Positions 37,032-53,745 of a stretch of 64,000 bases of DNA are shown here, piece by piece. The notes under the pieces are model-generated. The model ran no database searches. It saw only the letters and a list, made by a program, of their open reading frames with translations, and had not been told where the DNA came from. The first letter of the stretch is position 1. Each line of letters opens with the position of its first letter. Origin of the DNA: Spirochaetia bacterium. Its GTDB lineage: Bacteria > Spirochaetota > Spirochaetia > CADAEX01. The DNA lies in NCBI GenBank assembly GCA_963662265.2, contig CAXXHA010000010.1, positions 128,001-192,000 on the forward strand, in the 5' to 3' direction. Made by a program: the position numbers and the translations under genes.

Positions 37032-37202
37032 ACTTAACAGAGAATACCACGGTTCAGGCTTAAGCAGTAGAAGCATGTAGCAAAACAGCCGTTCACCCAA
37101 AATGTCGGGACTTTTTATTGTTGCAGGTGGAATCTGTTGGGTATAAGATTAATTAAATATCTGGAGCATCCGACATCTTCGGGTATTCTCAGAACGTTAT
37201 GT
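37032..37202 (+). repeat. attC-like site 2 (long type, 171 bp)
   Basis: ACTTAAC-A-GAGAATACC...GGTATTCTC-AGAAC-GTTATGT. Confidence 0.9.
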
Positions 37203-37431
37203 ACAATGAGCCCGACAAGAGGAAGACGCCCGGACCTCCGGCCGACGGGCGAAGAGATAATATATATATGTTATATCGAAAGAAGGAGTAAAAATGAGAT
37301 TGAAGGCATTAATATTAGAGAACTTCCGAGGCTATTCTGGAGTAAATTTAATTAATTTTGAAAAAGACTGGAAATGGCAAGTCATTTTCCCCACATTTAG
37401 GAAATTAAAAATCCCCCACCTGCAGAAAAAA

Positions 37432-38172
37432 TTATACCCCCTTTTTCTCCTGAATTCTATATGAATCTCCCTCAAGGGAGAAAACATGCGCATGATGTAA
37501 AAGCCTATCAAGCATTGCTGTTGTCATGATTTCATCACCCATCATTTCAGACCACTGATCAAAACCTTTATTTGAAGTAATTATTACTGACGATCTTTCA
37601 TAGAGTTCGCTGATAAGATTAAAAAAAAGATTGGCCTCTTTTCTGTCGATAGGCGTATAGCCTATTTCATCAATAATTAGTAACGAAGATCTGAGAATCC
37701 TGTTTATTCTGAATGAACTTGATCTCATAGTTTCCATTGTTTTCAACAGTTTTATTAGTGAAGTTATCCTTTCAAAACAGACAGTGTATCCGGCTTCAAT
37801 TGCCTTGTACCCGAGAGCAATTGATAGATGTGTTTTCCCAAGGCCGGGAGGTCCAAAGAACATGATATTTTCAGATTTATCTATCCACCTGAAATCCTTG
37901 AGATTATTTAACTGTTCTTCAGTTATCCCTTTTATTCTTGAAAAATTGAATGTCTCAAGTTCCTTAATTACAGGAAAATGGGCACCTGTAAGATTTCTAT
38001 GAAGACGTCTTTCATTTCTGAAATGTACTTCTTCTGTAAGAAGGATGCTTAAAAAATCAAGATGAGATATTTTCTCCTTTGTTGCTTTTTCAAGTGCCTC
38101 ATCAAGATTAACAGATATTCCTTTAAGCTTTAGACTATCAAGTATTCCTGTACAGTAATCAAAACAGCTCAT
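37432..38172 (-). CDS. istB: IS21 helper ATPase
   Basis: GPPGLGKTHL, LLIIDEIGY, ITSN, AMLDRLLHH. Confidence 0.95.
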   Translation of the reverse strand: MSCFDYCTGILDSLKLKGISVNLDEALEKATKEKISHLDFLSILLTEEVHFRNERRLHRNLTGAHFPVIKELETFNFSRIKGITEEQLNNLKDFRWIDKSENIMFFGPPGLGKTHLSIALGYKAIEAGYTVCFERITSLIKLLKTMETMRSSSFRINRILRSSLLIIDEIGYTPIDRKEANLFFNLISELYERSSVIITSNKGFDQWSEMMGDEIMTTAMLDRLLHHAHVFSLEGDSYRIQEKKGV

Positions 38173-39731
38173 AAAGCACCTCCTAAAAGACTTACAAGTG
38201 AGGTGTAGTAACTTAAATCCCTTTTCTTTACTTCTATGTTTTTATTCTCATGTTTTACAGCTTTTATTCCTGTAAGAAGCTGTGGCAGAATATCCGGATA
38301 ATTTTCAGTTTCACAGCTTCTTACATAAAGATAAGACTCTTCAAAATTCCTTGCAGATAGTGTTCCGTTTTCAATGCATAAATCTGCAGTTTTTGCTATT
38401 AACTTATCATCAGGATTTGAGTTTATGAAAGCATAAAGCTCGCGCTGCTGATCTCTGTAATACCTGCTGTATTTTTTGTAATTCTGATCAACATATTGTT
38501 TCCATGAGTTACTGCTAAATCTGTTCTTTAATTTTTTGATAACTTCATCGGGCTTGGAATCATAATTCCTGAAATGATTATGTTTGGTTATTTTTTTCCC
38601 CTTTATCGGTGAGATTTTGTGCCTGGCAATCTCTTCTCCATCTATTTTGTCATAGATAAAAAGGTCTGTATCTGTTTGGTAAATCCAGACAGTTTTTTTT
38701 CTGAACCTGTTAGGGACAGAGTAAAATGAAGATGAAACACTTATCAATGATTTACTATTTACTTCCCTTGATTCTTTATTTATGATGCTTTCCCTTCTGA
38801 AAATAGACGGCTTTAATTTTTTAAAATGTGGAATCTCTTTAAGCAAAGCTTCTTGAGGAATTATTCCAGTTGCCTGGCATATTTTACCGTTAGCTCTTCT
38901 TGAAAGCCAATTATTTAATGCCTCCTGTATTTGATCAAAGGATGTGAAATGTCTTGCTGAAAAGAAACTGCTTTTGATGAATTTCACAAAGTTTTCGACT
39001 TTACCTTTGCTCTCAGGGTCTGCTTTTCTGCAGACATACATCTTAAACCCCTGCTCATCCTTGAAGGCTTTAAATTCTTTTGTATACTTAATATCTCCGC
39101 TGTTTTCTTTAACAACCATGACTTTGTCCTGATCAATCACGATTTCTTCAGGTACCCCTCCTATTATTTCAAAGGTATCAAGTAAATGATTTATCACATC
39201 TATGGATTTAAACGGCCTCTTCTGTACTGCTGCATACTTGAATCTGCTTACAGATAGAATGACTCCAAAGATATATACTTTCTCACCGGTTTCTATTTCA
39301 GTTTCTCCGAAATCAAGCTGTAGTTGTTTTCCATGTGGAAGTTCTTCAACCGGTGTATAGATTCTCTTGTATTCGTAATTATCTACTTCTCCTGTTTTCT
39401 TTAAGAAAATGAGATAATTTCTCAAAGTCCTTTCAGTGCCGGGAAGTTCTCCATATTTTTCTTCAAGAACATCATAGATTGATGAAGTGTATATTTTATT
39501 GTTATTTAAATTAAAAATATTCAGTATTTCATCTTTGAAAGGAGCAAAAATCTTTTCCTTTTCTACACTGTTTATCTGGTATTCAAGATACTCTGCTTCC
39601 GACATTTCAAAGTATTTTCTAACTGTTTTTCTGTCGATTTTTAATTCTCTGGATATTTTCCTTTTTGAATATCCTCTATTCTTGAAAACTCTTATTTTTT
39701 GGTACATATTCATAGTAATCATTTGAGTCAT
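38169..39731 (-). CDS. istA: IS21 transposase
   Basis: N-terminal HTH, QLDFG, GGVPEEIVIDQ, PESKGKVEN. Confidence 0.95.
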   Translation of the reverse strand: MTQMITMNMYQKIRVFKNRGYSKRKISRELKIDRKTVRKYFEMSEAEYLEYQINSVEKEKIFAPFKDEILNIFNLNNNKIYTSSIYDVLEEKYGELPGTERTLRNYLIFLKKTGEVDNYEYKRIYTPVEELPHGKQLQLDFGETEIETGEKVYIFGVILSVSRFKYAAVQKRPFKSIDVINHLLDTFEIIGGVPEEIVIDQDKVMVVKENSGDIKYTKEFKAFKDEQGFKMYVCRKADPESKGKVENFVKFIKSSFFSARHFTSFDQIQEALNNWLSRRANGKICQATGIIPQEALLKEIPHFKKLKPSIFRRESIINKESREVNSKSLISVSSSFYSVPNRFRKKTVWIYQTDTDLFIYDKIDGEEIARHKISPIKGKKITKHNHFRNYDSKPDEVIKKLKNRFSSNSWKQYVDQNYKKYSRYYRDQQRELYAFINSNPDDKLIAKTADLCIENGTLSARNFEESYLYVRSCETENYPDILPQLLTGIKAVKHENKNIEVKKRDLSYYTSLVSLLGGAL

Positions 39732-41717
39732 TCCTGGTAGTTTTTGTCGTGATTACATACTAAGGTTTGACTCTTTTTTTTCCTATAGGGTGGGGAATTT
39801 TATTTTCCATCCTATGGGGATTTCATGTTACCATTTCCAAAGACCTAACATCTTTTATAGGAAAGAATGATAGTGGTAAGTCATCAATTCTTGAAGCTCT
39901 TGAGATATTTTTTAATAGTAAAGTTATTAAAATTGATGGTGATGATAAATTTGTACGTTCATTAGAAAATATTGTGAATATTGGTTGTGTTTTTACGGAT
40001 CTTCCAGAAAAAGTCATTATTGATGAAACTAATGAGACATCATTTATAGATGAATATCTTACAAATGAAAATGAGGATTTGGTTGTTTTAAAGAGATTTA
40101 AAATACAGAAAACTGCAAGTAAACCGGAAACATTTATAATAGCAAATCATCCTAGTAAAACTGGTTATGACGACTTACATAGTTTAAAAATCGGCGAATT
40201 AAAGAAGAGAGGAAAAGAATTAGGTATTAAAGATACCGTAGAAGATCAGAGAATTAGTGCTCATTGGAGAAAAGCGATTTGGTCTTCAACTGATAATTTG
40301 GAAATACAAAAATCTGAAATTGAAATTACACAATTAAGCACAGAATCAAAAAAATTATATACAAGAATAAGTGAAGCAATGCCAACATTTGCTCTTTTCC
40401 GATCAGATAGAGAAAGTAGTGACTCTGATCCCGAAGCGAAAGACCCTATGCAATTAGCAGTAAATGAAGCAAAAAAAACTTATGAAGCTCAAATTAATGA
40501 ATTACAAGAGAAAATAGAAAAAAGTGTTTTCGAGGTTGCAGAAAGAACGCTAGAAAAAATGAATGAAATGGATCCTTCTTTAGCTAATGAATTGAACCCA
40601 AGATTAAAAGAAACACCAAAATGGAGTTTTAGTTTTACAATTGATGGTGATGAAAATATTCCAATTAATAAGAGAGGTAGTGGGGTCAGGAGACTTGTTC
40701 TTTTAAATTTCTTTAGAGCAGAAGCTGAAAGAAAGAAAATTCAAAATCATTCTCCTGATGTAATATATGCAATTGAAGAACCTGAAACATCTCAGCATCC
40801 GAATTATCAGCAATTATTGATTGATTCATTGATAGCATTATCACAAAATGATAATTGTCAGGTTTTATTAACAACACATGTTCCAGCATTGGCAGAAAGA
40901 TTAGAAATTAACTCTATTAGATTTATTGAGAAAATCGGATTAGGTGAAATTAAAGTTCATATGCATAATGATTATGTTTTAGAATTAGCTACAGAAAGTT
41001 TAGGGATAATGCCTGAAAAAGAAATATCTTTAGCCAATAAAGTTATATTAGTTGAAGGTCATAGTGATATAACATTTTTGAATAAAATTAGTGAAGAATA
41101 TAAGAATGCGGGAGAAATAACGTCAACATTAAGTGATTCAAAAATATATCCAATACCTATTGGTGGATGCGGGAATCTTAAACATTGGATAACCAAACGC
41201 ATAATAGATAAAATGGGAATAGAATATTTTATTTTAATGGATTCAGATTTAGGAGATCCAGTAAATAATTCTAGAAACATTACTAAAATAAATGAAATTA
41301 ATACAAATGGTCAAATCGGATATTTAACAAATAAACGAGAACCTGAGAACTATATTGATCCAGATTTATTGAAAACAAAGTATGATAAAGATATTAGATA
41401 CACTAACACTTGTGATGCGAAAAAAATAATTGGAAAAGAATTAACAATTAGACCAAATGATGTTCTTGAGTTTATATGGCCACATATGGAATATCAGCAT
41501 ATGAAAAAAATGGCGAAATATGGTGATAAAGATGAATTCAAAGAGTGGATGGATGCGTTCTTAGAATAATGATAATATGAATATTCTAGCTAAGAAGATT
41601 ATAATGGTGAAGAATCCAAACCTCTGAAATAAAGACAAATAGAGAATGTAATTACTTTTTACAAATAGTATTGCTGACGATATTTTTAAGAATAGCTTAA
41701 ATATCTGGTAGAATACG

Positions 41718-41746
41718 TTCAATAACAATTAAATAAATGGTATAAT
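41718..41746 (+). promoter_or_regulatory. Internal sigma70 promoter for the methyltransferase (probably leaderless mRNA)
   Basis: TTCAAT-17-TATAAT with extended TGn; ATGs 3 and 6 nt downstream of the -10. Confidence 0.5.
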
Positions 41747-41749
41747 TTT

Positions 41750-43546
41750 ATGATGGAAACGAGTCTTTCAGTTCTTATTGAAGATTTATCAGTCTCAGCA
41801 AAGAAATATGAAAATGAATATAACGATGATGAGATGCTTACATTTGCTATTTCATTTTGTCAGAGATTAATATCAACATATTGGCAGATTAATATCTCTG
41901 ATACAAAATATTCAATTACTCCGTATAATTCTGAGCTATATGGATATCTGAAAGGGCAACCAATAATTATTGCTGATCAAATCGCACAGTTATTATCTGC
42001 AATGCCAAATAAGGATGCTGGTTTCTTTATTGGAAATATTTATACATCATTACTTCCGAAGAATGTCAGGTCAAAAAACGGCGCTTATTACACACCTCCA
42101 ATACTCGTACAAAGATTATTAACATCTATTGATAACTATAGATTTGATTGGATTAATAGTAAAATATTGGATCCTTCATGTGGTGGAGCTGCATTTCTTA
42201 CAAGTATATCCAGATTTATTATTGAAAAATATAAACATGAATTATCAGCAGATGATTTATTTTCCTTTATTGAAAAAAACATACAAGGGTATGAAATTGA
42301 TCCTTTTGCAGCATGGATCTCACAAACATTGTTGGAATTTGAATTATATGATCTATATCTCAAAGTAAATAAAAGAATAAAAAAAATCATTTCTGTAACT
42401 AATTCCCTTGAGGAAAATTACGACAAGAATTTTGACCTTATCATAGGAAATCCCCCTTATGGAAAAGTAACAATTGAAAAAAACTTAAGAGAGAAATTCA
42501 GTAATAGCGTATATGGACATGCCAATCTTTATGGATTATTTACAGATTTAGCATTAAATCTTTTAAATGAAAATGGATATATAGCCTATGTTACTCCAAC
42601 TTCGTTTTTGGGTGGAAATTATTTTAAGAATTTAAGAAAACTTTTAGGAGAAAATTCTCCTTTAGTTTCTATTGATTTCATAAAAGATAGAAGTGGCGTT
42701 TTTAGTGATGTTCTTCAAGAAACAGCACTAGCAATATATAAAAAATCAAAATTTGTAAAAAAAGTTGAAATATCTGAATTATCAACTACAAAAAATCTTG
42801 ATTCCTTATCAATTATAAAAATTGGAAGTTTGCTAGTTAATCAAAATACAGAAAAACCCTGGCTTATTCCAAGAGAAAAAGATCAATTATCGTTATATAA
42901 GAATATTTCTTCCTTCGAGTATACTTTACGGGACTATGGATTTAAGGTCCGTACTGGACAACTTGTATGGAACAGACACAAGGAACAATTATCAAGTTCA
43001 AAAAGAAACTCTTATCCTTTAATATGGGCCGAATCCATATTAAGAAATGGAAATTTTGAATTTAAATATACAAAGAAGAATCATTTCCCATACTTTAAAT
43101 TGGAAAGAAAACAAAATTATTTACTCACAAATAAAGAATGTATTATATTACAGCGAACAACATCTAAAGAACAAAGTAGAAGATTAATATCTTCAATACT
43201 TCCAAATGAATTTATTAGTCAATATGGTGGTGTAGTTATTGAAAACCATATTAATATTATAGAACAGAATGAAGAAACAGTTTTAGATTTAGTTACACTT
43301 AATATCTTGTTAAATTCAATAGCAATAGATAGAATTTTTCGTTGTATTAATGGCAGTGTAGCCGTTTCTGCTTATGAGTTAAATTCAATACCATTTCCAT
43401 CCCCAGAAAAGATTTTGAATCTAAAAAAATTCTTAATTAAAAATGATAAACGAAGCTCAATAGAAGAATATATTCTAGATATTTATGGAGGCAATATTGA
43501 TGAGTCAACTTCCTACAGTTCAATCGATACAAGACAAACTGGATAA
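41750..43546 (+). CDS. N6-adenine DNA methyltransferase (BsuBI/PstI/Eco57I-like, gamma class)
   Basis: GAYYTP, LDPSCGGAAFL, IIGNPPY, TRD with LQRTTSKEQSRRL. Confidence 0.92.
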   Translation: MMETSLSVLIEDLSVSAKKYENEYNDDEMLTFAISFCQRLISTYWQINISDTKYSITPYNSELYGYLKGQPIIIADQIAQLLSAMPNKDAGFFIGNIYTSLLPKNVRSKNGAYYTPPILVQRLLTSIDNYRFDWINSKILDPSCGGAAFLTSISRFIIEKYKHELSADDLFSFIEKNIQGYEIDPFAAWISQTLLEFELYDLYLKVNKRIKKIISVTNSLEENYDKNFDLIIGNPPYGKVTIEKNLREKFSNSVYGHANLYGLFTDLALNLLNENGYIAYVTPTSFLGGNYFKNLRKLLGENSPLVSIDFIKDRSGVFSDVLQETALAIYKKSKFVKKVEISELSTTKNLDSLSIIKIGSLLVNQNTEKPWLIPREKDQLSLYKNISSFEYTLRDYGFKVRTGQLVWNRHKEQLSSSKRNSYPLIWAESILRNGNFEFKYTKKNHFPYFKLERKQNYLLTNKECIILQRTTSKEQSRRLISSILPNEFISQYGGVVIENHINIIEQNEETVLDLVTLNILLNSIAIDRIFRCINGSVAVSAYELNSIPFPSPEKILNLKKFLIKNDKRSSIEEYILDIYGGNIDESTSYSSIDTRQTG

Positions 43547-44582
43547 AATATTTCCTCAGGGTTTAGAAAACAGAGGTTATTTGACTCGAGAAATGGCTGC
43601 CAAGACAATATTTGTTATGATTTATTCAACAGCAGTTGAAGGAACAGATATTTGGATTAGACCTGATCAAATTACAAAAATGACTGATAAGCAAGCAGCC
43701 ATTACCGATATTGATAAAAGAGAAGAATGGTATGAAATGACACTTCGTCCTGGAGCTATGAAGGATATTAAAGATCGATGGTATGCTGCAAATACAAGAG
43801 AACCTATTAGAGATGAAACATTAAGATACGGTCTGATAGTGTATAATGCGGTAATAGAGCGCGCAGGTTTACCTACAACATCTTCAAAACCAAGATATGC
43901 TCTACAACGGGAATTCTATGAATTATTTATGGTTGACGAAAATGCAGATGATTTTATTAAAAATTGGCAAGATAAATATTTATCTGCTGAATCATTAGCT
44001 CGGGTAAAATTATTAGGTCAATCAAAACAATCAAAAACTAATAATGAAAATATTTTGATTGATCTGCCAGATGGTCAGAGAAGAAAAATGCTTCCTGGAC
44101 CAAGTTCATTTCTTACAAAAGCAACTGTAGAATTATTCTGTAAATCTTTTTTAAAAAATCCCGTTGTAATTTTCATTAGTGAATCAGGGAATAAAGTAGT
44201 ACTTAAAGATGATGAATTAGCAAAATCAATTGGATTTAATATTCCAGCGGAAAAAAGTTTACCAGATCTGATAATCGCTGATCTTACTGATGACAATACG
44301 CTAATATATTTTATTGAAATAGTTGCAACAGACGGCCCAATTAACAGAAAAAGAAAAGATGATTTGCTGAAAATTGTAGCTGAATCTTCATTTAAAAGAG
44401 AGAATGTATTTTTTATGACGGTATTTGAAGATAGGAATTCAGCACCCTTTAAGAAAAATATATCTTCGATAGCACCAAATACACTTATTTGGTTTGCCTC
44501 AGAACCTGAATTTATAATGATCTGGAATTCTTTAAAAAATTATAAAATTGCAGATATGTCTAGTTTCATAAATGAAACATAA
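43500..44582 (+). CDS. BsuBI/PstI family type II restriction endonuclease
   Basis: WYAANTREPIRDETLR, LPDLII..FIEIVATDGPI (PD-(D/E)xK type); overlaps the MTase end. Confidence 0.9.
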   Translation: MSQLPTVQSIQDKLDKIFPQGLENRGYLTREMAAKTIFVMIYSTAVEGTDIWIRPDQITKMTDKQAAITDIDKREEWYEMTLRPGAMKDIKDRWYAANTREPIRDETLRYGLIVYNAVIERAGLPTTSSKPRYALQREFYELFMVDENADDFIKNWQDKYLSAESLARVKLLGQSKQSKTNNENILIDLPDGQRRKMLPGPSSFLTKATVELFCKSFLKNPVVIFISESGNKVVLKDDELAKSIGFNIPAEKSLPDLIIADLTDDNTLIYFIEIVATDGPINRKRKDDLLKIVAESSFKRENVFFMTVFEDRNSAPFKKNISSIAPNTLIWFASEPEFIMIWNSLKNYKIADMSSFINET

Positions 44583-44677
44583 AAAATAGTTTCAGTAGTC
44601 TTGGCTATTTTTTTTAAAGTATAAATGAAGAATCCAGACCTAACTCCGTTGAACGGTCTGGATGTCGGGCTCAAAGC

Positions 44678-44759
44678 ACATAACAGCGAATATGCGGTTT
44701 CGCTTCGCTTTACCCAAACTGGCCTTTGGCCAGCTTCGCATATTCGCGGAACGTTATGA
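44678..44759 (+). repeat. attC-like site 3 (short type, 82 bp)
   Basis: ACATAAC-A-GCGAATATGCG...CGCATATTCGC-GGAAC-GTTATGA, perfect 11-bp stem. Confidence 0.9.
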
Positions 44760-44834
44760 ATAATTCCTGACCAAGAAGAGACCTTTATACTCGCCATCCA
44801 TGGCTCGTGAAGAAATAGAAAATCTTATATTGTA

Positions 44835-45164
44835 TTAAACACTTAGTATTTTATGATCTTCCAGAATATTACCATCCATTTCTAACAACTGCAAAAATCT
44901 AGAAGCTGGTCCTTGAGGTTTGTTTCTACCGGATTCCCAGGCTTCAACCGTTTTTACAGATACACCAAGTGCTTCTGCGAAAATAGTCTGTGATAAATTC
45001 AATGATAACCGGATTTGTTTTATTTTGGATGCATCATATTTTGGAATTGGAGAAATACTGACTTTCCTTCTTTTTACTGAAGGTAATTTACCTTTACTAT
45101 ATTCAAGAGATTCATTGAGTCCGGAGATAATTGAGTTATAATAATTTTTATCATCGTTTTTCAT
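44835..45164 (-). CDS. HigA-like HTH antitoxin
   Basis: IRLSLNLSQTIFAEALGVSVKTVEAWESGRNKP. Confidence 0.9.
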   Translation of the reverse strand: MKNDDKNYYNSIISGLNESLEYSKGKLPSVKRRKVSISPIPKYDASKIKQIRLSLNLSQTIFAEALGVSVKTVEAWESGRNKPQGPASRFLQLLEMDGNILEDHKILSV

Positions 45165-45549: not shown

Positions 45550-45659
45550 GAGTTGAAAATACAAATATTCTAACCTTTAGTTATACTTTTACCTTTTACT
45601 GTCTCAAAAGGACTTCCATGTCCTTTTGAGAATGAAATATCTTAATGGTCAGGAACTAT

Positions 45660-45827: not shown

Positions 45828-45881
45828 TCAATTTTTGGTCTAAAATATGTTTAAAAGGTAATTATCCAATAAGGAATCATT

Positions 45882-46550: not shown

Positions 46551-46578
46551 GATACAACCAGATGAGACCAAAAACTGA

Positions 46579-46593
46579 ACATAACAGCGAATA
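46579..46593 (+). repeat. attC-like site 5, left arm only (cut by IS3)
   Basis: ACATAACAGCGAATA identical to the start of site 3, immediately followed by the IS end. Confidence 0.8.
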
Positions 46594-46650
46594 TGGCATT
46601 CCCCCAAAACTGTAGACACTTGATATACTTAGAAACTAAGGAGTATTAAA

Positions 46651-46938
46651 GTGCCAAAGAGTCCCTACACAGAAGAATTTAAAGACGAAATATTAAAGCA
46701 AATAATGGAAGAAGAACACAGTGTTCTTGAAGTATCAAAAGCAACAGGAATAAGTGACGTTACTCTTTATAACTGGCTTAGAAAGGCCGGGTGGAAATCC
46801 GGGGAGTCTCGAGAAAAGAAAAAATTAACAGAAGCAGAAAAGGAAAACAGAGAATTAAAAGCAGAGATCAGAAAGCTTAAGATGGAGCGTGATATCTTAA
46901 AAAAGGCCGCAGCGTACTTTGCGAAGGAGTCCCAGTAA
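46651..46938 (+). CDS. IS3 OrfA
   Basis: YTEEFK HTH, ERDILKKAAAYF; A6G slippery site at 46899-46905. Confidence 0.92.
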   Translation: MPKSPYTEEFKDEILKQIMEEEHSVLEVSKATGISDVTLYNWLRKAGWKSGESREKKKLTEAEKENRELKAEIRKLKMERDILKKAAAYFAKESQ

Positions 46939-47795
46939 AGTACGCTTTTATTCGGGACAACAGAAAAGCGTTTCCAATTCGCCCTATGTGCAGGATATTA
47001 AAAGTTAATCCATCAGGATTTTATCGGTGGTTAAAAACACCAGAATCTCCTAGAACAATAGAAAATAAAAAAGTGACAGAACTAATCCGTTTTTACTGGG
47101 AAGAAAGCGGTCAAGTATATGGAAGTCCAAATATACATGAGGATCTAAAAGAAGCAGGTTATAGCTACGGTGTTAATCGGGTTGCTCGTTTGATGAGAGT
47201 AGCTGGAATAAAAGGTGCTTACAGACGGAAACGGCATCATGTACCTTGGGTTCCTGGAGAAATTTACCAGAAGAATACTTTGAATAGAGAATTTTCTGTT
47301 GCTGAGCCAAATCAAGCTTGGTGTACTGATATAACATATATCCGAACTTATGAAGGCTGGTTATATCTGGCAGTAGTAATTGATCTATTTAACAGAGGAG
47401 TTGTTGGCTGGTCGATGAAGAATCATCAGAAAGCAATTATTGTTATGGATGCTTTGTTTATGGCAGTAAAAAGAAGAAGACCTACAAAGTCTGTTCTTAT
47501 CCATTCTGATCAAGGGTGTCAGTTTACAAGTAAGGATTGGGAGGATTTTTGTGAGGCCCACTCTTTGGAAATTAGCATGAGTAGAAGAGGTAATTGTTGG
47601 GATAATTCTGTAGTTGAATCATTCTTTTCAAATCTTAAAAGAGAAAGAATCAGGAATAAAATTTATAAAACCAGAGAGGAGGCAAGAAAAGATATTTTTA
47701 ATTATATTGAAATGTTTTACAATACAAAAAGACGGCATGGTCATTTAGGAAAGCGAAGCCCTGCTGATTTTGAAGATAAGTTTTCATCAGATTAA
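46935..47795 (+). CDS. IS3 OrfB (DDE integrase core; expressed as OrfAB by -1 frameshift)
   Basis: WCTDITYI, HSDQGCQF, GNCWDNSVVESFF; the 5' coordinate is approximate. Confidence 0.92.
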   Translation, partial: VKYAFIRDNRKAFPIRPMCRILKVNPSGFYRWLKTPESPRTIENKKVTELIRFYWEESGQVYGSPNIHEDLKEAGYSYGVNRVARLMRVAGIKGAYRRKRHHVPWVPGEIYQKNTLNREFSVAEPNQAWCTDITYIRTYEGWLYLAVVIDLFNRGVVGWSMKNHQKAIIVMDALFMAVKRRRPTKSVLIHSDQGCQFTSKDWEDFCEAHSLEISMSRRGNCWDNSVVESFFSNLKRERIRNKIYKTREEARKDIFNYIEMFYNTKRRHGHLGKRSPADFEDKFSSD

Positions 47796-47822
47796 AGTGT
47801 CTACAGAATCAGGGGAATGCCA

Positions 47823-47984
47823 GTTGAAAACTTTAGTGCTGTCGATAGGACATACGATGAAGTAATTAAAAAAGGGGCAATATCAATTCTTAAGCCAACA
47901 ACAGAACCTTGGGGACAAAGAACGTGTTATGTGGCAGATCCTGAAGGAAACTTAATTGAAATTGGATCATTTCAGAAAGATTGA
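47823..47984 (+). pseudogene. 3' remnant of a VOC/glyoxalase gene
   Basis: VENFSAVDRTYDEVIKKGA..PTTEPWGQRTCYVADPEGNLIEIG*; starts exactly at the IS3 end. Confidence 0.85.
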
Positions 47985-47997
47985 TAGAGGGGGATAT

Positions 47998-48345
47998 ATG
48001 TCAACTACACCGGATTTTATTGAATTTGTCTTTGATCAGATTGATAATAAATGGAATAAACGATATAGGAAAATGTTTGGAGAATATATGGTTTACGTAA
48101 ATGACAAACCGATATTGCTTGTATGTGATAATATAGTTTATGCAAAAAAATTGGATTGCATAAAGCCATTTATTAAGGAAAAGGAATGTGGATTTCCATA
48201 TAATGGAGCAAAAGAACATTATATAGTTGATGTTGAAGATGATGAACTTTTTAGTAAAATTATCGAGGAGCTTGAAAAAGTAATTAAAGTACCTGTGAAA
48301 AAGAATAAAAGACGAATAAGTAACGTACAGACTGAAAGATATTAG
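47998..48345 (+). CDS. TfoX N-terminal-domain-like protein
   Basis: RYRKMFGEYMVYVNDKPILLVCDN; GAGGGG RBS. Confidence 0.75.
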   Translation: MSTTPDFIEFVFDQIDNKWNKRYRKMFGEYMVYVNDKPILLVCDNIVYAKKLDCIKPFIKEKECGFPYNGAKEHYIVDVEDDELFSKIIEELEKVIKVPVKKNKRRISNVQTERY

Positions 48346-48420
48346 TGAAAATGTGAAGCCAAAAATATCCATGTATTTGGCAGAGGATATAATCAATAAT
48401 TTCTAAAAACAAAAACTGGG

Positions 48421-48502
48421 TTACAACAAGAAATATACGATTCTGCTTCACTCCAACCAAATACGGAGTTGCCACACTTCGCATATTCCTGAAACGTTAC
48501 AG
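48421..48502 (+). repeat. attC-like site 6 (short type)
   Basis: TTACAAC-A-AGAAATATACGA...TCGCATATTCCT-GAAAC-GTTACAG. Confidence 0.8.
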
Positions 48503-48526
48503 GCAACTACATTCTGAGGAGACTTA

Positions 48527-49078
48527 ATGATAAACAGTGAACGACTTACTTTGAGAAACATCGAAGAGAGAGATATTACTTTTCTTGAAGAAATCTTACT
48601 CGATAAGCGTTTAATGAAATTTATACCACTCCCAATTTCGAATCATGATCAGGTTGAATCATTTATGAAATCATTGATTAAAGCCCAATGTTTACAAAAG
48701 AGAAAACAGTATTTTTTAATAATTGAAGCGAATGATTCAAAGCAGCAAATTGGTACGATAACTGGAAAAATTATTAGCGAAGAAATACAAGATGGTATCG
48801 GTATTCTGGGATATACAATTTTGAAAGAATATTGGGGAAATGGATATGCTACTGAAGCAACAAATACTATTATTTCCTTTTTTCTGAATGAATTGAAACT
48901 TCATAGACTCGAAGCATCAAGTGTAGCTGACAACAAATCATCAGAGAATGTGTTAAAAAAAGTAGGAATGAAATATGAAGGGACTAAACGTAAGTCTCTG
49001 AATATTGATGGAATCTGGTATGATGAATTACAATACGGGATTCTCAGAAACGATATTTCTGCGAACTTTGAATTGTAG
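48527..49078 (+). CDS. GNAT acetyltransferase, RimJ/RimL type
   Basis: SERLTLR, YWGNGYATEA, NKSSENVLKKVGM. Confidence 0.9.
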   Translation: MINSERLTLRNIEERDITFLEEILLDKRLMKFIPLPISNHDQVESFMKSLIKAQCLQKRKQYFLIIEANDSKQQIGTITGKIISEEIQDGIGILGYTILKEYWGNGYATEATNTIISFFLNELKLHRLEASSVADNKSSENVLKKVGMKYEGTKRKSLNIDGIWYDELQYGILRNDISANFEL

Positions 49079-49082
49079 CTTC

Positions 49083-49166
49083 CTATAACAGCGCATGTGC
49101 GGTGCTGCATTCGGCTTTACGCAAATTGGCCTTTGACCAACATCGCATATTCGCAATACGTTGTAC
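49083..49166 (+). repeat. attC-like site 7 (short type)
   Basis: CTATAAC-A-GCGCATGTGCG...CGCATATTCGC-AATAC-GTTGTAC. Confidence 0.8.
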
Positions 49167-49289
49167 ATCATATCAAAATATTATCGTCATTAGCGGCGAT
49201 TAAAGGCAAAAAAGATTTTAAAGAGAAAGGCGATGTTTTTGAAGTAAAAGACATTTCCTGGATAGAAAATATCAGAGGAAAAATATTAT

Positions 49290-49829
49290 ATGAAAAGATA
49301 TATTGCCTTGTTGCGGGGAATTAATATAAGTGGAAAAAACAAGATATCCATGTCTGAATTAAAGAATGGATTTACAGAACATGGTTTTACAGAGGTTGTG
49401 ACATATCTTAATAGTGGTAATGTGATCTTTTCATGTATTAATAATAATGAAGCTGTTCTTTCAAATGAAATAAAGTTAATGATAAAAGAAAGATTTGATT
49501 TAAACATACCGGTTTTTGTTGTCTTACAAGAAAAATTAGAAGAACTATTAAATCATGCTCCCGGTTGGTGGGGAAATGATAACAAAGAAATATATGATAA
49601 TCTCATTTTTATGATGCCTCCTTTATCTTATGAGGAGTTTTATGATGTAATCGGCAATCCTAAAGCGGAATATGAAAAAGTGCATAATTACAGCAATGTT
49701 ATTTTCTGGTCATTTATACGGAAAGATTATCAAAAGACAAATTGGTGGTCAGGGACTGCTGGCTCAAACATAAGTGATAAGATTACAATTCGAACAGCTA
49801 ATACAGTAAGAAAGATAGTGAGTATGTGA
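49290..49829 (+). CDS. DUF1697 family protein
   Basis: YIALLRGINISG, TYLNSGNVIF, TIRTANT. Confidence 0.85.
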   Translation: MKRYIALLRGINISGKNKISMSELKNGFTEHGFTEVVTYLNSGNVIFSCINNNEAVLSNEIKLMIKERFDLNIPVFVVLQEKLEELLNHAPGWWGNDNKEIYDNLIFMMPPLSYEEFYDVIGNPKAEYEKVHNYSNVIFWSFIRKDYQKTNWWSGTAGSNISDKITIRTANTVRKIVSM

Positions 49830-49879
49830 TATATAGTAGTGAGGTTAATTAAAATCTCAATATTACTTATGGAGAAAGA

Positions 49880-50028
49880 ATGAGAATTGAAAATGTCAGC
49901 AAAAAAGACTATTCACAGTTAATTGAAATATGGGAAACTTCTGTACGTTCAACTCATGATTTCCTGACTGAAAAGGATATTATATCGTTAAGATCTTTAA
50001 TAATTGATAAATATTTTCCTGCTGTTGA
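49880..50028 (+). pseudogene. Truncated YjaB-like GNAT fused to half an attC
   Basis: IWETSVRSTHDFL N-terminus; the sequence switches to an attC right arm at TTGAC (~50025). Confidence 0.7.
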
Positions 50029-50058
50029 CCAACTTCCCATATTCGTGAAACGTTATAA
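50025..50058 (+). repeat. attC-like site 8, right arm only
   Basis: TTGACCAACTTCCCATATTCGTGAAAC-GTTATAA matches the right arm of site 7. Confidence 0.7.
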
Positions 50059-50095
50059 GCAATTAATAAATTGATTAGTTTAAAGGAGTTCTAAT

Positions 50096-50590
50096 ATGAA
50101 AGCTGCATTAATGATAATTGATATGCAAAAAGAATATTTCACTGGTCTTGCAAAAAAATCAATGACCGAAGCATCCGAGTATATAAATGAAGTTTTAGGG
50201 TATTTCAGAGAACGAAAACTGCCTATTGTTTGGGTTCAGGATATTGATAAAAAATGTGGAGTTGTTCCAGATTCAGAAGGTTTTGAAATTATTGATTTAC
50301 TAGAGAAGCAGAATAATGAAATAAGTATTTTCAAAGAATATGGAAATAGTTTTAATAAAACAGAATGTGGAAATATCCTAAAGAAAGAAAATGTCGATGT
50401 AATTGTAATAACTGGATACTGTGCAGAATATTGTGTTTTATCTACATATCGAGGCGCTCAGGATTTGGATTTTACACCAGTCATACTGAAAAAAGGAATT
50501 GCGAGTGGTGATTATCAGAATCTACAATTTATTGAGAAAATCTGTGATACAATTCCCTATAATATAATCAGCAAGATGATTGGAAAATAA
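50096..50590 (+). CDS. Isochorismatase/cysteine hydrolase family protein
   Basis: IIDMQ, K..NSF, GYCAEYCVLST. Confidence 0.9.
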   Translation: MKAALMIIDMQKEYFTGLAKKSMTEASEYINEVLGYFRERKLPIVWVQDIDKKCGVVPDSEGFEIIDLLEKQNNEISIFKEYGNSFNKTECGNILKKENVDVIVITGYCAEYCVLSTYRGAQDLDFTPVILKKGIASGDYQNLQFIEKICDTIPYNIISKMIGK

Positions 50591-50613
50591 TACTCCCAAG
50601 TACTACTGACTGT

Positions 50614-50706
50614 TCATAACAGGGGCTATTTACTCCGCCAAGTCGGGCTTCGTGCTGCACCATTTTTGGCCTAAGCCAAACATCACATAACCCAAGAACG
50701 TTATTG
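50614..50706 (+). repeat. attC-like site 9
   Basis: TCATAAC-AGGGGCTAT...ATAACCCAAGAAC-GTTATTG. Confidence 0.7.
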
Positions 50707-50741
50707 GCAATATCCCTTAAGATCAACATGTGAGGAAGATA

Positions 50742-51647
50742 ATGAGAATCAAGCTGGAAAAGCATACGACAAGCATATTACAGGCACTCCTCGTGACTTT
50801 TCTCTGGTCTACATCTTTCATTATCATCAAAAAGGGATTGCTCTCAATACCACCTCTGACATTTGCTGGCCTAAGATACTTTTTTGCATCACTTTGCTTG
50901 TTGCCATTTTCATTTATGCCGCAACGTCAATCTGAAATCCGGAAATTGGGTAAAAATAAATGGGGTAAACTGATTATTTTAGGCATGGTATTCTATGTGT
51001 TTACCCAGGGGATACAATTCATAGGTCTATCACTTCTGCCTTCCACAACTGTCAGCTTAATGCTCAATTTTACTCCTGTAATAGTTATGATACTAAGTGT
51101 CGTATTCATTAATGAAAAACCGGTGAAAAGACAAGTCGCGGGAGTATTCATCTTTGTTGCAGGAGCTCTTGTTTATTTTCTACCTTTATCAAATCTCGGG
51201 GCGCAGTTAATAGGATTGATTGTTATGGCCTTTGGCATTATTTCAAATGCAATTTCATCGGTTTTAGGAAGAAATATAAATCGAGATAAAGAAATTACTC
51301 CGTTTACAATTACATTAATTTCGATGTCATTTGGTTCAATGCTTCTCCTGATTACCGGGCTTGTCATTGAAGGAATACCAAGTATACCACTCCGGTCATG
51401 GATATCTCTGATTTGGTTATCAGTTGTAAATACCGCATTTGCATTTACACTTTGGAACCGATCTCTTCGTCACCTTACAGCAATGAAATCAAGTATCATC
51501 AACGGAACAATGTTGATTCAAATCGCTATATTGGCCTGGATTTTTCTAGGAGAGGGCCTCTCCGGGACCAATATCGGCGGCATGATTATTGCATCAATCG
51601 GTGCAATATTAGTCCAGTTGCGGTATAAAGAGAAGGTAAGCAATTAG
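50742..51647 (+). CDS. DMT/EamA family transporter (cassette)
   Basis: LWSTSFIIIK, 10 TM segments, IFLGE. Confidence 0.9.
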   Translation: MRIKLEKHTTSILQALLVTFLWSTSFIIIKKGLLSIPPLTFAGLRYFFASLCLLPFSFMPQRQSEIRKLGKNKWGKLIILGMVFYVFTQGIQFIGLSLLPSTTVSLMLNFTPVIVMILSVVFINEKPVKRQVAGVFIFVAGALVYFLPLSNLGAQLIGLIVMAFGIISNAISSVLGRNINRDKEITPFTITLISMSFGSMLLLITGLVIEGIPSIPLRSWISLIWLSVVNTAFAFTLWNRSLRHLTAMKSSIINGTMLIQIAILAWIFLGEGLSGTNIGGMIIASIGAILVQLRYKEKVSN

Positions 51648-51665
51648 CGGAGACCGGGAGACTAT

Positions 51666-51748
51666 CAAGAACAGTGAATATGTGGTTCAGCATTCAGCAT
51701 CTCCCAAAATGCCGTTGACCAACATCGCATATTTACAAAACATTATAG
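51666..51748 (+). repeat. attC-like site 10, degenerate (GTT changed to ATT)
   Basis: CAAGAAC-A-GTGAATATGTG...CGCATATTTAC-AAAAC-ATTATAG. Confidence 0.7.
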
Positions 51749-51786
51749 TTAATTTTGAATTAAGATTTTAATCAAGGAGTTTTCAT

Positions 51787-52218
51787 TTGAATATTACTAA
51801 AATGACAATAGCTGACTATGACGAAGCATTTAAACTCTGGTCAAATACTGAAGGGATGGGACTACGCTCCCTTGATGACTCACAAAAGGGTATTGATTCT
51901 TTTTTACAGAGAAATCCCAACACAAATTTTGTTTGCAGAAATAACAGTGAATTGATTGGTGTCATTTTATCAGGGCATGATGGTCGAAGAGGTTATATTT
52001 ATCATGCTGCTGTACATCCAAATTACCGGAGAAAGGGAGTTGGAAGAAAACTTGTAAAAGAAGTTATTTCTTCGCTGGACAAAGAGGGAATAAAAAAAGT
52101 CGCATTAGTTGTTTTCTCAAGCAATCAGAAAGGCAATGACTTCTGGGAATCTTTAGGCTTTATAAATAGAAAAGACTTGAATTATAGAAATCTCGCTATT
52201 GATCCTACAAATATTTGA
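51787..52218 (+). CDS. GNAT acetyltransferase (YpeA-like)
   Basis: GHDGRRGYIYHAAVHPNYRRKGVG; TTG start with AGGAG RBS. Confidence 0.88.
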   Translation: MNITKMTIADYDEAFKLWSNTEGMGLRSLDDSQKGIDSFLQRNPNTNFVCRNNSELIGVILSGHDGRRGYIYHAAVHPNYRRKGVGRKLVKEVISSLDKEGIKKVALVVFSSNQKGNDFWESLGFINRKDLNYRNLAIDPTNI

Positions 52219-52243
52219 TAAGCAAACACTTAATTTAAACTTT

Positions 52244-52333
52244 CAAGAACAGACAATATATGATCCGCCCAGCTACGGGCTCGCCAAATCCATTACTTAG
52301 TGCTAGACTTCATATATTTCTTAAACGTTATAT
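52244..52333 (+). repeat. attC-like site 11, degenerate
   Basis: CAAGAAC-AGACAATATATGA...TCATATATTTCTTAAAC-GTTATAT. Confidence 0.7.
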
Positions 52334-52361
52334 CTAATTATATTTTGTAAAGAGAACATAA

Positions 52362-52883
52362 ATGAAACATATAGAAATAAAAGAAATTACTGAAATAGAC
52401 ATCCCTGAAATTGTAGACATTTGGTATGAAGTTTCTCTTCAAGCTCATGGATTTATTTCCAGCGAATATTGGAGAGCGAACAAAGATCAAATGAGTAATA
52501 AATACATACCAATGTCTGAAACATTTCAAGCAACAGATGGTGAAAATATATTAGGATTTATCTCATTATTAGATGATTATCTTGCTGCAATTTTTGTAAA
52601 ATCTGAATTCCAGGGAAGAGGAATTGGATCTTTATTATTAAACCATGCAATGAGTCTTCGCAATAATCTGCAATTAAAAGTATTCTGCAAAAATGCAAAG
52701 AGTATAGAATACTATAAATCAAAAGGTTTTTCTGTAATTTCAGAATCAAAAGATAATGAGACAGGAGAAAATGAGCTTGTCATGAAGTGGCATAAAAAAA
52801 AACTAGACGTAACAAGAAATATGCACAGCCCTACAGGCTTGGCCTTCGCAAATGCAGCGTTGCTTCTCTTTGCATATTTCTGA
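52362..52883 (+). CDS. GNAT acetyltransferase (YiaC-like); ORF reads through attC 12
   Basis: AHGFI, FQGRGIGSLLL; the original stop was probably near 52804 and lost by A-run slippage. Confidence 0.8.
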   Translation: MKHIEIKEITEIDIPEIVDIWYEVSLQAHGFISSEYWRANKDQMSNKYIPMSETFQATDGENILGFISLLDDYLAAIFVKSEFQGRGIGSLLLNHAMSLRNNLQLKVFCKNAKSIEYYKSKGFSVISESKDNETGENELVMKWHKKKLDVTRNMHSPTGLAFANAALLLFAYF

Positions 52884-52893
52884 AACGTTTGGC
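52807..52893 (+). repeat. attC-like site 12 (short type)
   Basis: ACGTAAC-A-AGAAATATGCA...TGCATATTTCT-GAAAC-GTTTGGC, perfect 11-bp stem. Confidence 0.8.
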
Positions 52894-53014
52894 GCAATTT
52901 GTCCCCCAAGAAAAACATTGCCCGGACATCCAGCCAACAGACTAAAATAACACTTCATGATGTGGTAATTAAATTAGCTGGTGAAAAAAACCATTTTTTA
53001 TGAGAAAATAGTTT

Positions 53015-53521
53015 ATGAATGAACAAAATTTTATAGAAAAAGATAATAACATTAGAAATAAGTTTGATACCATAATTTTATACTATTCTTATCATCATAA
53101 AAATACTGAAAAGATTGCAAAAGCAATAGGCGATATTTTAAAAGCAGAAGTCTATCCAATAGAAGAGTTGAAACAAATAAATATTGATAAATATAAATTG
53201 ATAGGTTTTGGAGCAGGAATTGATAGTTGTCAACACTATAAAGAGTTAATCGAGTTTATAGATAAAATAGAAAAAAATGAAGGAAAAGAGGCGTTTATCT
53301 TTTCGACCAGCGCGATTTACAATAAAGATAAGATGAAAAACGATCATTTAAAATTGAGAAATATTTTAGAAAACAACGAGTATAGAATTATAGGGGAATT
53401 TAGCTGTAAAGGTTTTAACACCAATAGTTTTTTGAAATATTTCGGAGGAATGAATCGAGGTCGTCCAAATGATGAAGATATAAAAAATGCTCAAGAGTTT
53501 GCAAAGAAATTATTAATATGA
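53015..53521 (+). CDS. Flavodoxin family protein
   Basis: YYSYHHKNTEKIA, IGFGAGI, GMNRGRPN. Confidence 0.85.
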   Translation: MNEQNFIEKDNNIRNKFDTIILYYSYHHKNTEKIAKAIGDILKAEVYPIEELKQINIDKYKLIGFGAGIDSCQHYKELIEFIDKIEKNEGKEAFIFSTSAIYNKDKMKNDHLKLRNILENNEYRIIGEFSCKGFNTNSFLKYFGGMNRGRPNDEDIKNAQEFAKKLLI

Positions 53522-53630
53522 GCAACTAGGGTGCTCGATAAACTTAATGTTTTTATAAAGAAGTTTGTTGATCCAGAGATTTAGAATCCAGACCGAACTC
53601 TGTTTAATATTCTGAATGTTGAACCAAAGC

Positions 53631-53745
53631 ATATAAGAGGGGCTATGTCGCATTGCTATAAGCTCACTGGCCTGAGGCATATGGCCTATGTCAAAATTTC
53701 TGCGCAGTAACTCCGGGAACTTAGCATATTCTTGAACCGTTAAAT
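53631..53745 (+). repeat. attC-like site 13, degenerate
   Basis: ATATAAG-AGGGGCTATG...CATATTCTTGAACC-GTTAAAT. Confidence 0.55.

Follow-up and report, generated by a model that had tools for sequence, protein, structure and literature searches.

A candidate hairpin-bounded frame around the recombination site of unrelated gene cassettes in Spirochaetia

Introduction

The textbook integron cassette is an ORF followed by a 3′ attC site, with six conserved bases at its 5′ end. A cassette array in a Spirochaetia bacterium raises the question of why two cassettes with unrelated cargo should be alike in the non-coding sequence at both of their ends. We analyzed this array in a 64,000-nucleotide stretch of DNA (GenBank assembly GCA_963662265.2, contig CAXXHA010000010.1, positions 128,001 to 192,000), which we term the window. 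The first-pass annotation of this DNA had recorded the likeness between cassettes 3 and 13 and had proposed that genes are loaded into, or swapped within, a preexisting hairpin-bounded scaffold. (Its cassette 13, a name kept here, is cassette 12 in our own count because a cassette interrupted by an IS3 element is there counted as one.) We propose, with a probability of roughly 0.6, that the leader and trailer common to the two cassettes form the outer portions of a cassette frame specific to their lineage. On this reading, unrelated cassettes have like ends because the cassettes of this spirochaete lineage all carry one frame, bounded by hairpins, about the recombination site.

Two unrelated cassettes with like ends

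Cassette 3 opens with a 5′ arm (R′ box, linker, and stem 2; 37196..37217, plus strand), followed on the same strand by a leader hairpin (L-hp, 37227..37251) that is an exact copy of the lineage consensus and whose core begins 32 nt from the G of GTT. Its cargo, likewise on the plus strand, comprises genes for an OLD-family ATPase/TOPRIM protein (37295..41569), an Eco57I-like N6 methylase (41750-43546), and a BsuBI/PstI-type endonuclease (43485-44582). A minus-strand IS21 element (~37368-39840, with istB at 37432-38172 and istA at 38169-39731) splits the first of these close to its 5′ end; IS-only contigs span 37368-39840. On the plus strand there follow a trailer hairpin (T-hp, 44632..44663) with a 9-bp stem, whose family variants show compensatory changes, a 3′ arm (44663..44684) made up of stem 2′, linker, and an R″ box with AAC at its end, and the core of attC3 from AAC to GTT (44682..44755), which belongs to a short class of ~75 nt. 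Strand assignment left aside, the predicted fold of attC3 has no extrahelical base in its first 11 bp.

Cassette 13, all of whose features lie on the plus strand, has a 5′ arm (52887..52907) that is not complementary to its own 3′ arm; no cognate partner of this 5′ arm was found anywhere in the genome with up to 4 mismatches allowed. Its decayed leader hairpin (52920..52943) begins its core 33 nt from the G of GTT and matches the 24-nt lineage consensus at 18 of 24 positions (binomial P of ~7e-6 per offset), with all six changes being to A or T. Then come a flavodoxin gene (53015..53521; PF12641), a decayed trailer hairpin (53586-53617), a 3′ arm relic (53618-53637) whose R″ box reads AAG rather than AAC, and a degenerate attC13 of ~105 nt (53635..53742). 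An intact arm of the same type as this 3′ arm is present elsewhere. The cargo is thus as the first-pass annotation had it, OLD and RM genes in one cassette and a flavodoxin in the other, and the attC sites do differ.

Both leaders and both trailers lie where that annotation had placed them. The likeness of the trailers (44629-44684 and 53583-53637) is firm, with a local alignment score of 48 that is reached by none of 500 shuffles (mean of 15.2, maximum of 25). The leaders, claimed to resemble each other, do so only marginally as a pair, with 16 of 19 core positions alike and a score of 23 against a shuffle mean of 15.0 (9 of 500 shuffles reach 23); each, however, fits the consensus of the whole lineage and is set equally far from the edge of its cassette. 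What had been called the trailer is a hairpin only in part, its final ~20 nt in each case being 3′ arm plus attC R″ box. The 5′ arm, which makes up the first 20 nt of each cassette, had been overlooked.

Cassette 13 is a decayed chimera with two non-matching arms, and these non-cognate arms are the sole direct sign of recombination within frames. We propose that both cassettes derive from one common frame pool and resemble each other through this descent. Cassette 13 would then be an old copy, no longer mobile and shifted by drift towards A+T; the 5′ arm it carries may have been taken from a different cassette, for which recombination between the repeated leaders would be the simplest route. 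A contig from another sample covers 47823-54715 with 2 differences. This cover is one of three results used from contigs of four sequencing runs, the joints in which are mostly repeat driven; the other two are break points at 37250-37259, where contigs of another sample match the window up to these positions and diverge beyond, and a joint between 37256 and 44625. Contigs from another sample also join some of the window's cassette ends to other sequence, which, like a framed cassette at a non-array site of another genome (see below), gives an indirect hint that the cassettes may be excised and integrated.

Arms and the composite attC stem

By arms we mean the R stem, linker, and stem 2 taken together, the 5′ arm lying after G|TT and the 3′ arm before the attC core. 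A framed cassette runs from the G|TT crossover through a 9-bp R stem and a short linker to a second stem of 8 to 9 bp; a purine-rich spacer, the leader hairpin, the cargo, and the trailer hairpin follow, and after another spacer the complementary stem 2 and R stem lead into the attC core. The 5′ arm of cassette 3 is complementary to 44663-44684, with an alignment score of 29 that none of 500 shuffles reaches, and the predicted fold of the cassette pairs it with the 3′ arm. Such pairing is general: among 195 cassettes from all examined arrays, chosen on the R stem alone, stem 2 pairs at 8 of 8 positions in 175, 7 of 8 in 11, 6 of 8 in 8, and 4 of 8 in 1, across 47 distinct stem-2 sequences. In a related Spirochaetia genome, G009, arms are complementary in 85 of 88 cassettes, with a mean score of 15.4 versus 4.1 for 2,509 cross-type controls. 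Within the window, matching arms are seen by eye in cassettes 1, 2, 3, 4, and 6.

The arm type changes at ACG|TT. Since each 5′ arm pairs with the 3′ arm of its own cassette and not with that of its neighbor, the frame is contiguous only in the excised circle, where it reads as trailer hairpin, long composite attC stem, and leader hairpin. By predicted energies, folding of the own-circle junction is favored over that of the array junction by a mean of 9.8 kcal/mol, and in 77 of 86 cassettes it is the lower of the two. A canonical integron of the same genome, on contig C8, served as a control: its 7 cassettes have R stems of 7 to 9 bp, beyond which pairing is at the chance level (3 to 5 of 8), and it is without the second stem.

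In other respects, these are recognizable integron cassettes. They are bounded by G|TT, and their first bases pair with their own R″ box (..AAC), so that, as in a canonical attC site (R″-L″-loop-L′-R′), the ends are AAC...GTT and the R stem uses the cassette's own first bases. The cores are predicted to form the imperfect hairpin typical of attC, with an R box, an unpaired spacer, an L box, and a variable loop; in G009, 78 of 81 have a 1-by-5 spacer bubble and a contiguous L helix of 6 to 11 bp, as in the canonical arrangement of unpaired spacer and L box. Strand assignment again aside, those G009 cores that were viewed by eye apparently have a single extra base after the L helix. Unlike in canonical attC, the framed R helix runs outward, via a linker with a top-strand A.C, into the second stem. 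The linker has AA opposite CT or CTG in 137 of 186 cases, and the two arm stems contain 10 A.C and 5 G.T, a ratio that does not by itself favor either strand. Framed cassettes are integron cassettes of altered architecture.

The fold that we propose for the frame draws on this covariation and on the predicted energies. It would form on the bottom strand, which is the strand used in integron recombination, with the arms extending the R helix to ~20 bp; the longer helix may make the circular cassette a better-folding substrate than the hybrid sites within the array. The two hairpins, with TCC loops on the top strand, might act as bookends that either shield the fold from variable cargo or bind a factor.

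Distribution and cargo of the frame

The leader core was found in 7 of 41 related genomes and, by an exact scan, in 111 stretches among species-representative genomes; of these, the 80 loci listed are nearly all in Spirochaetia MAGs. Reversed-pattern controls for the core gave 0 matches. The genome of the window has 4 copies, each beginning 32 nt from the cassette crossover, and G009 has 165 in 340 kb examined. The G009 array matches the scale and form of a sedentary chromosomal integron, with tens to hundreds of cassettes bearing related attC sites. Over all examined arrays there are 193 leader-bearing cassettes. Tabulating the cargo between paired ends, as the first-pass annotation had suggested, gives 164 cargos in G009, which group into 125 clusters, and 99 of these clusters have a single member. 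In metagenome contigs, the leader is present in 117 stretches.

Short GC-rich palindromic units within AT-rich spacers are also what one would see if the motifs were independent REP- or MITE-like repeats that lie in intergenic DNA by chance, a behavior against which the first-pass annotation had wished them checked. To this reading we give almost no credence: all 165 leaders of G009 are forward, with 0 reverse, in one ~325-kb array; the distance to the crossover is fixed; an arm lies directly upstream of 48 of 66 metagenome leaders under a strict pattern; and the one solitary leader examined, in another genome (G001), proved to be part of a whole framed cassette inserted at a GTT, non-array site. 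Dispersed repeats of this kind are refuted by the position and orientation of the copies. The framed hairpins do resemble REP/BIME and the hairpin-ended IS200/IS605-type elements in being short, GC rich, and gene flanking and in being read from one strand; unlike these, they are confined to cassettes, where their position and orientation relative to attC are fixed, and the examined copies are unscattered.

The hairpins: bookends or UTR elements

Covariation indicates that the leader and trailer hairpins are real helices. Position 5 of the trailer stem is G-C in 68 copies and A-T in 29, and of 193 leader copies, 179 have A.C at pair 8/16, the exceptions being G-C (9), A-T (4), and A.A (1). A variable position of the leader falls in a predicted bulge. 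Wobbles of the trailer number 18 A.C against 1 G.T on the top strand, and a top-strand A.C, as found in leader, trailer, and arm linker, is a G.T wobble on the bottom strand, which hints at bottom-strand folding. The A.C of the trailer could also be absorbed by a shift of the bulge. Loops are TCC 34 times and GGA 2 times; hairpins with GGA loops on the antisense strand presumably recall the CsrA type. The near-invariance of the 24-nt leader, loop included, fits sequence-specific recognition better than a passive bookend.

The hairpins and arms occur apart. One genome, G020, has the same two hairpins with an attC of canonical type and without the second stem, its leader core beginning 76 nt, not 32, from GTT; hairpins can thus exist without the arms, and it may be the cargo, not the site, that they serve. 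Conversely, cassettes 1 and 6 of the window have good arms and no such hairpins, so that arms do not require hairpins. Pairing between leader and trailer was also considered and was dropped, since by eye no covariation was seen between a variant leader and its trailer.

A service to the cargo could lie at the RNA level, with the leader as a 5′ UTR stem-loop and the trailer as a 3′ UTR stem-loop that stabilize or process cassette transcripts. As variants, the leader loop, ACCUCC in RNA and like an anti-Shine-Dalgarno sequence, might mask the ribosome-binding site, or the arms might form a long-range processing stem around each ORF. The placement is that of UTR elements, the leader preceding the start codon by a median of 75 nt and the trailer following the stop codon by a median of 64 nt; the longest ORF is co-oriented with the frame in 84 of 89 cassettes; the G020 hairpins stay near the ORF though their distance to GTT changes; and the loop bias of TCC over GGA is a property of one strand. 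Yet the consensus leader has its A.C mismatch on the sense strand and a G.T wobble on the other, the 18-to-1 bias of the trailer points the same way, the frame still follows the orientation of the array where the longest ORF is a minus-strand one (5 of 89 cassettes), and a T run is absent after either hairpin. We regard a role in RNA, in any of these forms, as unlikely, though worth keeping in mind.

How frame and cargo meet

In the proposal that had started from the two cassettes, an empty frame comes first, consisting of trailer hairpin, attC, and leader hairpin and existing either as a unit of the array or as a small circle, and genes are then inserted between the hairpins. The same non-coding frame does surround unrelated cargo, more than 100 of them on one frame, and is contiguous as a module in the circle; the same hairpins are found with two attC types; the frame/cargo border, predicted to be a fixed junction, is sharp, lying within ~5 nt of each hairpin; and, as noted, one contig from another sample joins 37256 to 44625, with unresolved content between them. 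Against this, the distances from hairpin to ORF vary, which means that there is no fixed insertion point. The empty scaffolds that the idea calls for did not turn up among the 193 leaders, where the smallest distance from a leader to its trailer, for those with a trailer downstream, is 604 nt, nor in metagenome contigs, none of which has the hairpins 3 to 61 nt apart against 117 stretches with the leader (this search used the exact trailer motif and so passes over diverged trailers). No candidate enzyme is known. The scaffold idea is in part upheld, but we consider gene loading into a ready-made frame improbable, even more so than an RNA role. Because leader and trailer belong to a single unbroken module once the cassette is circular, no swapping within the array of the window is needed. 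As far as these sequences speak, gene loading, attachment of the module as the cassette is made, and later homogenization would fit them equally well.

The common frame has consequences for the debated matter of how integron cassettes arise. Framed cassettes conserve at least 55 nt of the 5′ end, which covary with the 3′ end, and the module of the circular cassette comes to an estimated ~300 nt. A model that appends a hairpin only to the 3′ end of a gene does not of itself yield a conserved 5′ leader; the whole module must join the gene.

Comparison with known integrons

Sedentary chromosomal integrons with homogeneous attC repeats are exemplified by the Vibrio cholerae superintegron with its VCRs. 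The framed arrays are like it in being long and one-directional, in having promoterless cassettes that each end in a lineage-specific folded site, in the G|TT crossover, and in scale (at least 165 cassettes over ~325 kb in G009). They differ in that conservation extends across the crossover, with at least 55 nt common at the 5′ end; that a second stem of 8 to 9 bp lies outside the R box; that hairpin bookends flank the cargo; that the arms vary and covary and the leader hairpin is almost invariant; and that the recombinase adjacent to the array is without the IntI-specific insertion.

Among spirochaetes, an earlier paper reportedly dealt with an 'unusual integron' of T. denticola. Chromosomal integrons of Treponema have attC sites described with R boxes, L boxes, and a loop (Wu et al. 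2013, PMC3607928). As far as the portion of that account available to us goes, the likenesses include the spirochaete host and a recombinase co-directional with the cassettes (in G002, G008, and G009), and the canonical IntI of contig C8, at ~400 aa, is near the length given by the T. brennaborense intI coordinates. The same portion mentions no second stem, 5′ leader, or bookend hairpins, and the framed arrays adjoin a different, shorter recombinase. More widely, in the openly available articles consulted, neither a second stem nor a conserved 5′ leader nor hairpins in a bookend position were found described.

It is possible, although we hold it as a tentative and rather doubtful claim, that the arrays belong to a class of gene-capture systems in Spirochaetia that is akin to integrons and has not been described before. 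Such a class would combine an IntI-related recombinase without the IntI-specific insertion; composite sites in which the R arm is a helix of ~20 bp with a conserved bottom-strand G.T wobble; and a portable frame of TCC-loop hairpins that is attached to, or loaded with, genes at cassette making. If so, this lineage would preserve a footprint of cassette genesis. The arrays offer a testable system, with many natural arm variants, a control integron without the second stem in the same genome, and a candidate recombinase.

The adjacent recombinase and other features of the window

The candidate is a tyrosine recombinase of 286 aa on the minus strand (34743..35603; PF00589), adjacent to the array and related to integron integrases. 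Against TIGR02249, it scores 204.9 bits in two stretches and its G009 counterpart 200.1 bits, both below the cut-off of 265, as compared with 382.6 bits for the true IntI of contig C8, which has its own array of a different type. In alignment, the VchIntIA stretch 189-245 has no more than residues 203-214 of the window recombinase opposite it, and the latter lacks the IntI-specific insertion, the additional domain that marks the IntI of an integron platform. This insertion is a hallmark of integron integrases and is thought necessary for reading folded attC sites. Short recombinases and cassettes with a second stem are neighbors in G000, G002, G008, G009, and G028. Tools that require it presumably call such large arrays clusters of cassettes without an integrase. 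Pfam gave no match to the N-terminal ~70 aa of longer recombinases, and at the locus of a recombinase homologue in G011, no cassette with the exact 9-nt R stem was found in the 9 kb examined.

An Rfam scan of 34000-60000 at an E value of up to 1 returned a chance hit to a Dictyostelium RNA as its sole match. The array of the window has ~12 to 15 cassettes. It is headed by an attI-like junction on the plus strand (35619..35650) in the form of a 22-nt repeat, further copies of which border the recombinase gene, and it abuts the first GTT crossover (35644); the ATTATAGTTATCGTAAATG junction also heads an array on contig C5. A second leader family (B), CTCGCCATCCATGGCTCG, is found in cassette 2 (36057..36074, plus strand), and its motif recurs in cassette 4 (44790-44807) and in a cassette of contig C5.

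Shared Ends and the Cassette Frame

The ends common to cassettes 3 and 13 of the window (13 in the numbering of the first-pass annotation) are those of a variant integron cassette architecture, no earlier description of which was found in the literature searched, including the passages retrieved from it. In the related genome G009, the frame opens with the G|TT crossover plus 6 nt (stem 1) and continues through a short linker with 8 to 9 nt of stem 2, an AAGA-rich spacer, and the leader hairpin; the cargo follows, and the frame closes with the trailer hairpin, a CAAGAA spacer, stem 2', a linker, stem 1' reaching to AAC, and an attC core that runs to ACG|TT. The stem-bearing stretches at the two ends are termed here the 5' and 3' arms.

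The leaders (about 37216 to 37251 and 52907 to 52942) and trailers (44629 to 44684 and 53583 to 53637) originally reported for the two cassettes were recovered at those positions, and their cargos, OLD plus RM in cassette 3 and a flavodoxin in cassette 13, agree with the earlier identification. The trailers align with a score of 48, whereas shuffles averaged 15.2 with a maximum of 25, none of 500 reaching 48. The likeness of the leaders is marginal when the pair is taken alone, its score of 23 being reached by 9 of 500 shuffles, but the core of the cassette 13 leader agrees with the family consensus in 18 of its 24 positions (P of about 7e-6 per offset) and starts 33 nt from the crossover, versus 32 nt in cassette 3. 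The observation of shared ends is confirmed, and it generalizes beyond these two cassettes. In all six departures of the cassette 13 leader from the consensus, the new base is A or T. The same cassette has a decayed trailer stem and AAG in its R'' box; further, its two arms are unrelated, the 3' arm being of the cassette 3 type and also matching an intact arm pair elsewhere. The simplest reading is that cassette 13, now old and immobile, had its 5' end exchanged via recombination between repeated leaders.

The first-pass annotation also suggested that genes are loaded into, or swapped within, a preexisting hairpin-bounded scaffold, which is possible but unproven. Conservation drops to background within about 5 nt past the leader hairpin and is regained about 3 nt short of the trailer hairpin. 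The cargo between them ranges from 604 to 3535 nt; in 84 of 89 cassettes, the longest ORF points the same way as the frame, and the 164 cargos of G009 form 125 clusters, 99 of them singletons. No empty frame was found in the fetched arrays or the metagenome contigs. Contigs from another sample agree with the window as far as 37250 to 37259 and then diverge, and one such contig spans 47823 to 54715 with 2 differences.

Pairing between the Two Ends of a Cassette

The initial 22 nt of cassette 3 complement the 22 nt ending at its own R'' box (score of 29, reached by none of 500 shuffles). These stretches lie 7.4 kb apart in the array; in the predicted fold of the excised circle, they come to flank the attC core and lengthen its R stem. 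By eye, pairing of a cassette's own ends, with a different sequence in each, is also seen in window cassettes 1, 2, 4, and 6, is partial in 8 and 9, and is absent from the remaining ones. Complementary arms are present in 85 of 88 G009 cassettes, two of the three low scorers being miscalled crossovers, with a mean score of 15.4 versus 4.1 for 2509 cross-type controls. Among 195 cassettes drawn from all fetched arrays, with no more than one mismatch in the 9-nt R stem as the sole selection rule, stem 2 shows Watson-Crick pairing at all 8 positions in 175, at 7 in 11, at 6 in 8, and at 4 in 1, and it comprises 47 distinct sequences. The downstream neighbor carries another arm type in 86 of 127 cassettes. 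Over these 86, the junction formed in a cassette's own circle has a mean predicted fold 9.8 kcal/mol lower than the array junction, and it is lower in 77 of them. Hence, the arms are a property of the cassette itself, G|TT is the site of crossover, and only the circle contains the complete stem.

Hairpins and the Proposed Folded Strand

The leader is predicted to fold into a 6-bp outer stem, a 2-nt bulge, where its single freely variable position falls, a 4-bp inner stem, and a TCC triloop. In the trailer hairpin, the 8- to 9-bp stem carries one extra base and is followed by an internal loop and a 3- to 4-bp inner stem. In the leader, the pair formed by positions 8 and 16 is A.C in 179 of 193 copies (G-C in 9, A-T in 4, and A.A in 1); at trailer stem position 5, G-C occurs in 68 copies, A-T in 29, A.C in 18, and G.T in 1; and in the arm linker, AA faces CT or CTG in 137 of 186 cassettes, giving an A-T pair plus A.C. 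Since A.C on the top strand equals a G.T wobble on the bottom strand, this lean, shared by leader, trailer, and linker, suggests, short of proof, that the bottom DNA strand is the folded one. Integron recombination uses the bottom strand. The same wobble comparison on both arm stems was not decisive as to strand. Other hairpin families also occupy these positions: family B in cassettes 2 and 4 of the window and in one cassette of contig C5 from the same genome, and a third family with GTCCT loops, showing a compensatory change in the stem, in the cassettes at the start of the G009 array. When hairpins with perfect stems were collected from the end zones of 190 cassettes, TCC occurred within the loops 34 times and GGA twice.

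Distribution of the Leader

Three further leader cores occur in the window's own genome, all on contig C5 (about 43.7 to 52.3 kb, minus strand), in a second framed array that shares the window's attI-like junction. Each is equally offset from a crossover and accompanied by matching own arms, with the trailer hairpin also present in two. Allowing up to 3 mismatches, the core is present in 7 of 41 relatives, with none for reversed-pattern controls. G009 belongs to another genus within the family and carries 165 copies, each in the forward orientation, in a very large array of at least 165 framed cassettes over about 325 kb (G009:C1, about 1.850 to 2.175 Mb; L031-L040 and L154-L160). Exact matches in species-representative genomes comprise 111 stretches, and nearly all of the 80 loci listed are from Spirochaetia-labeled MAGs. 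Among the matches listed (including L073-L108), a few are from MAGs labeled Bacteroidales, Ignavibacteriales, or Gemmatimonadetes, and one 16.7-kb contig has five copies spaced by about 0.8 to 1.5 kb; these could reflect cross-phylum cassette transfer or misbinning. Metagenome contigs contain 117 leader-bearing stretches; 66 leaders there are preceded by 50 nt or more of sequence, and a strict pattern detects a window-type arm immediately 5' of 48 of them.

A lone framed cassette (GTT, arm, and leader) lies outside any array in the relative G001 (L003; G001:C1:1690358-1693381). Its GTT is about 170 nt downstream of the end of a chromosomal ORF, its cargo is a large uncharacterized ORF, and 3' of its leader hairpin is an extra stretch, GATAATAT...ATGTTATAT, resembling that of window cassette 3.

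Recombinases and the Canonical Integron

A tyrosine recombinase (34743 to 35603, minus strand) adjoins the window array; its G009 counterpart (L031:6782-7801) is upstream of the array and codirectional with it. The array-adjacent enzyme is related to IntI but is shorter than the canonical IntI of contig C8, scores under the integron-integrase cutoff, and lacks the stretch aligning to residues 189 to 245 of VchIntIA, the IntI-specific insertion, while retaining an IntI-like, SPL-type C terminus. Homologs adjoin second-stem arrays in G002, G008, G009, and G028, and the G001 homolog has stop codons and is about 9.5 kb from the first leader. At an E value of ≤1e-40, the short recombinase is found in 15 of 41 relatives, a wider spread than that of the leader motif; no recombinase homolog was detected on contig C5 at an E value of ≤1e-10. 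The window gene is flanked by three copies of a 22-nt repeat, TTATCAYGCAATACAGACAATT (34686 to 34742 and 35619 to 35640), one of which abuts the attI-like crossover; these copies are possible binding sites for the recombinase.

A third integron in the window's genome (C8:70001-86000; L152) is canonical. Its 406-aa IntI (7642 to 8862 in L152) scores 382.6 bits over the whole TIGR02249 profile, and its array runs divergently from the IntI gene with an attC type differing from that of the framed arrays. The second stem is absent from its 7 cassettes, with R stems of 7 to 9 bp and, beyond them, 3 to 5 of 8 positions paired, the chance level. The canonical intI of G009 has stop codons. In G020, the leader and trailer hairpins of the frame are found in cassettes whose attC is of the canonical type and which lack a second stem; there the leader core starts 76 nt from GTT, and the contig also has a canonical intI, in split form.

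The Window Array

In the window (G000:C10:128001-192000), the plus-strand array begins at about 35.6 kb, where the G+C content falls from about 40% to about 31%. Its R' boxes (ACG|TT) are at 36023, 37196, 44753, 45821, 48496, 49160, 50052, 50700, 51742, 52327, and 52887, with degenerate sites beyond, those of the distal part past 53.7 kb being decayed. The attC sites are of two classes, long (about 165 nt) and short (about 75 nt). The OLD-family gene of cassette 3 is interrupted close to its 5' end by an IS21 element (istA and istB; 37368 to 39840, minus strand), which splits it into parts at 37295 to 37367 and 39767 to 41569. An IS3-family element (about 46590 to 47830; ORFs at 46651 to 46938 and 46986 to 47795) appears to break the attC starting near 46590. 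Further along, a 139-nt duplicate with 95% identity (54682 to 54820 and 56796 to 56934) spans an ORF end and the approach to a degenerate attC. Cassette 4 has two small overlapping minus-strand ORFs (44835 to 45514) whose arrangement resembles that of a toxin-antitoxin pair; its family B leader and trailer hairpin keep the array orientation despite them.
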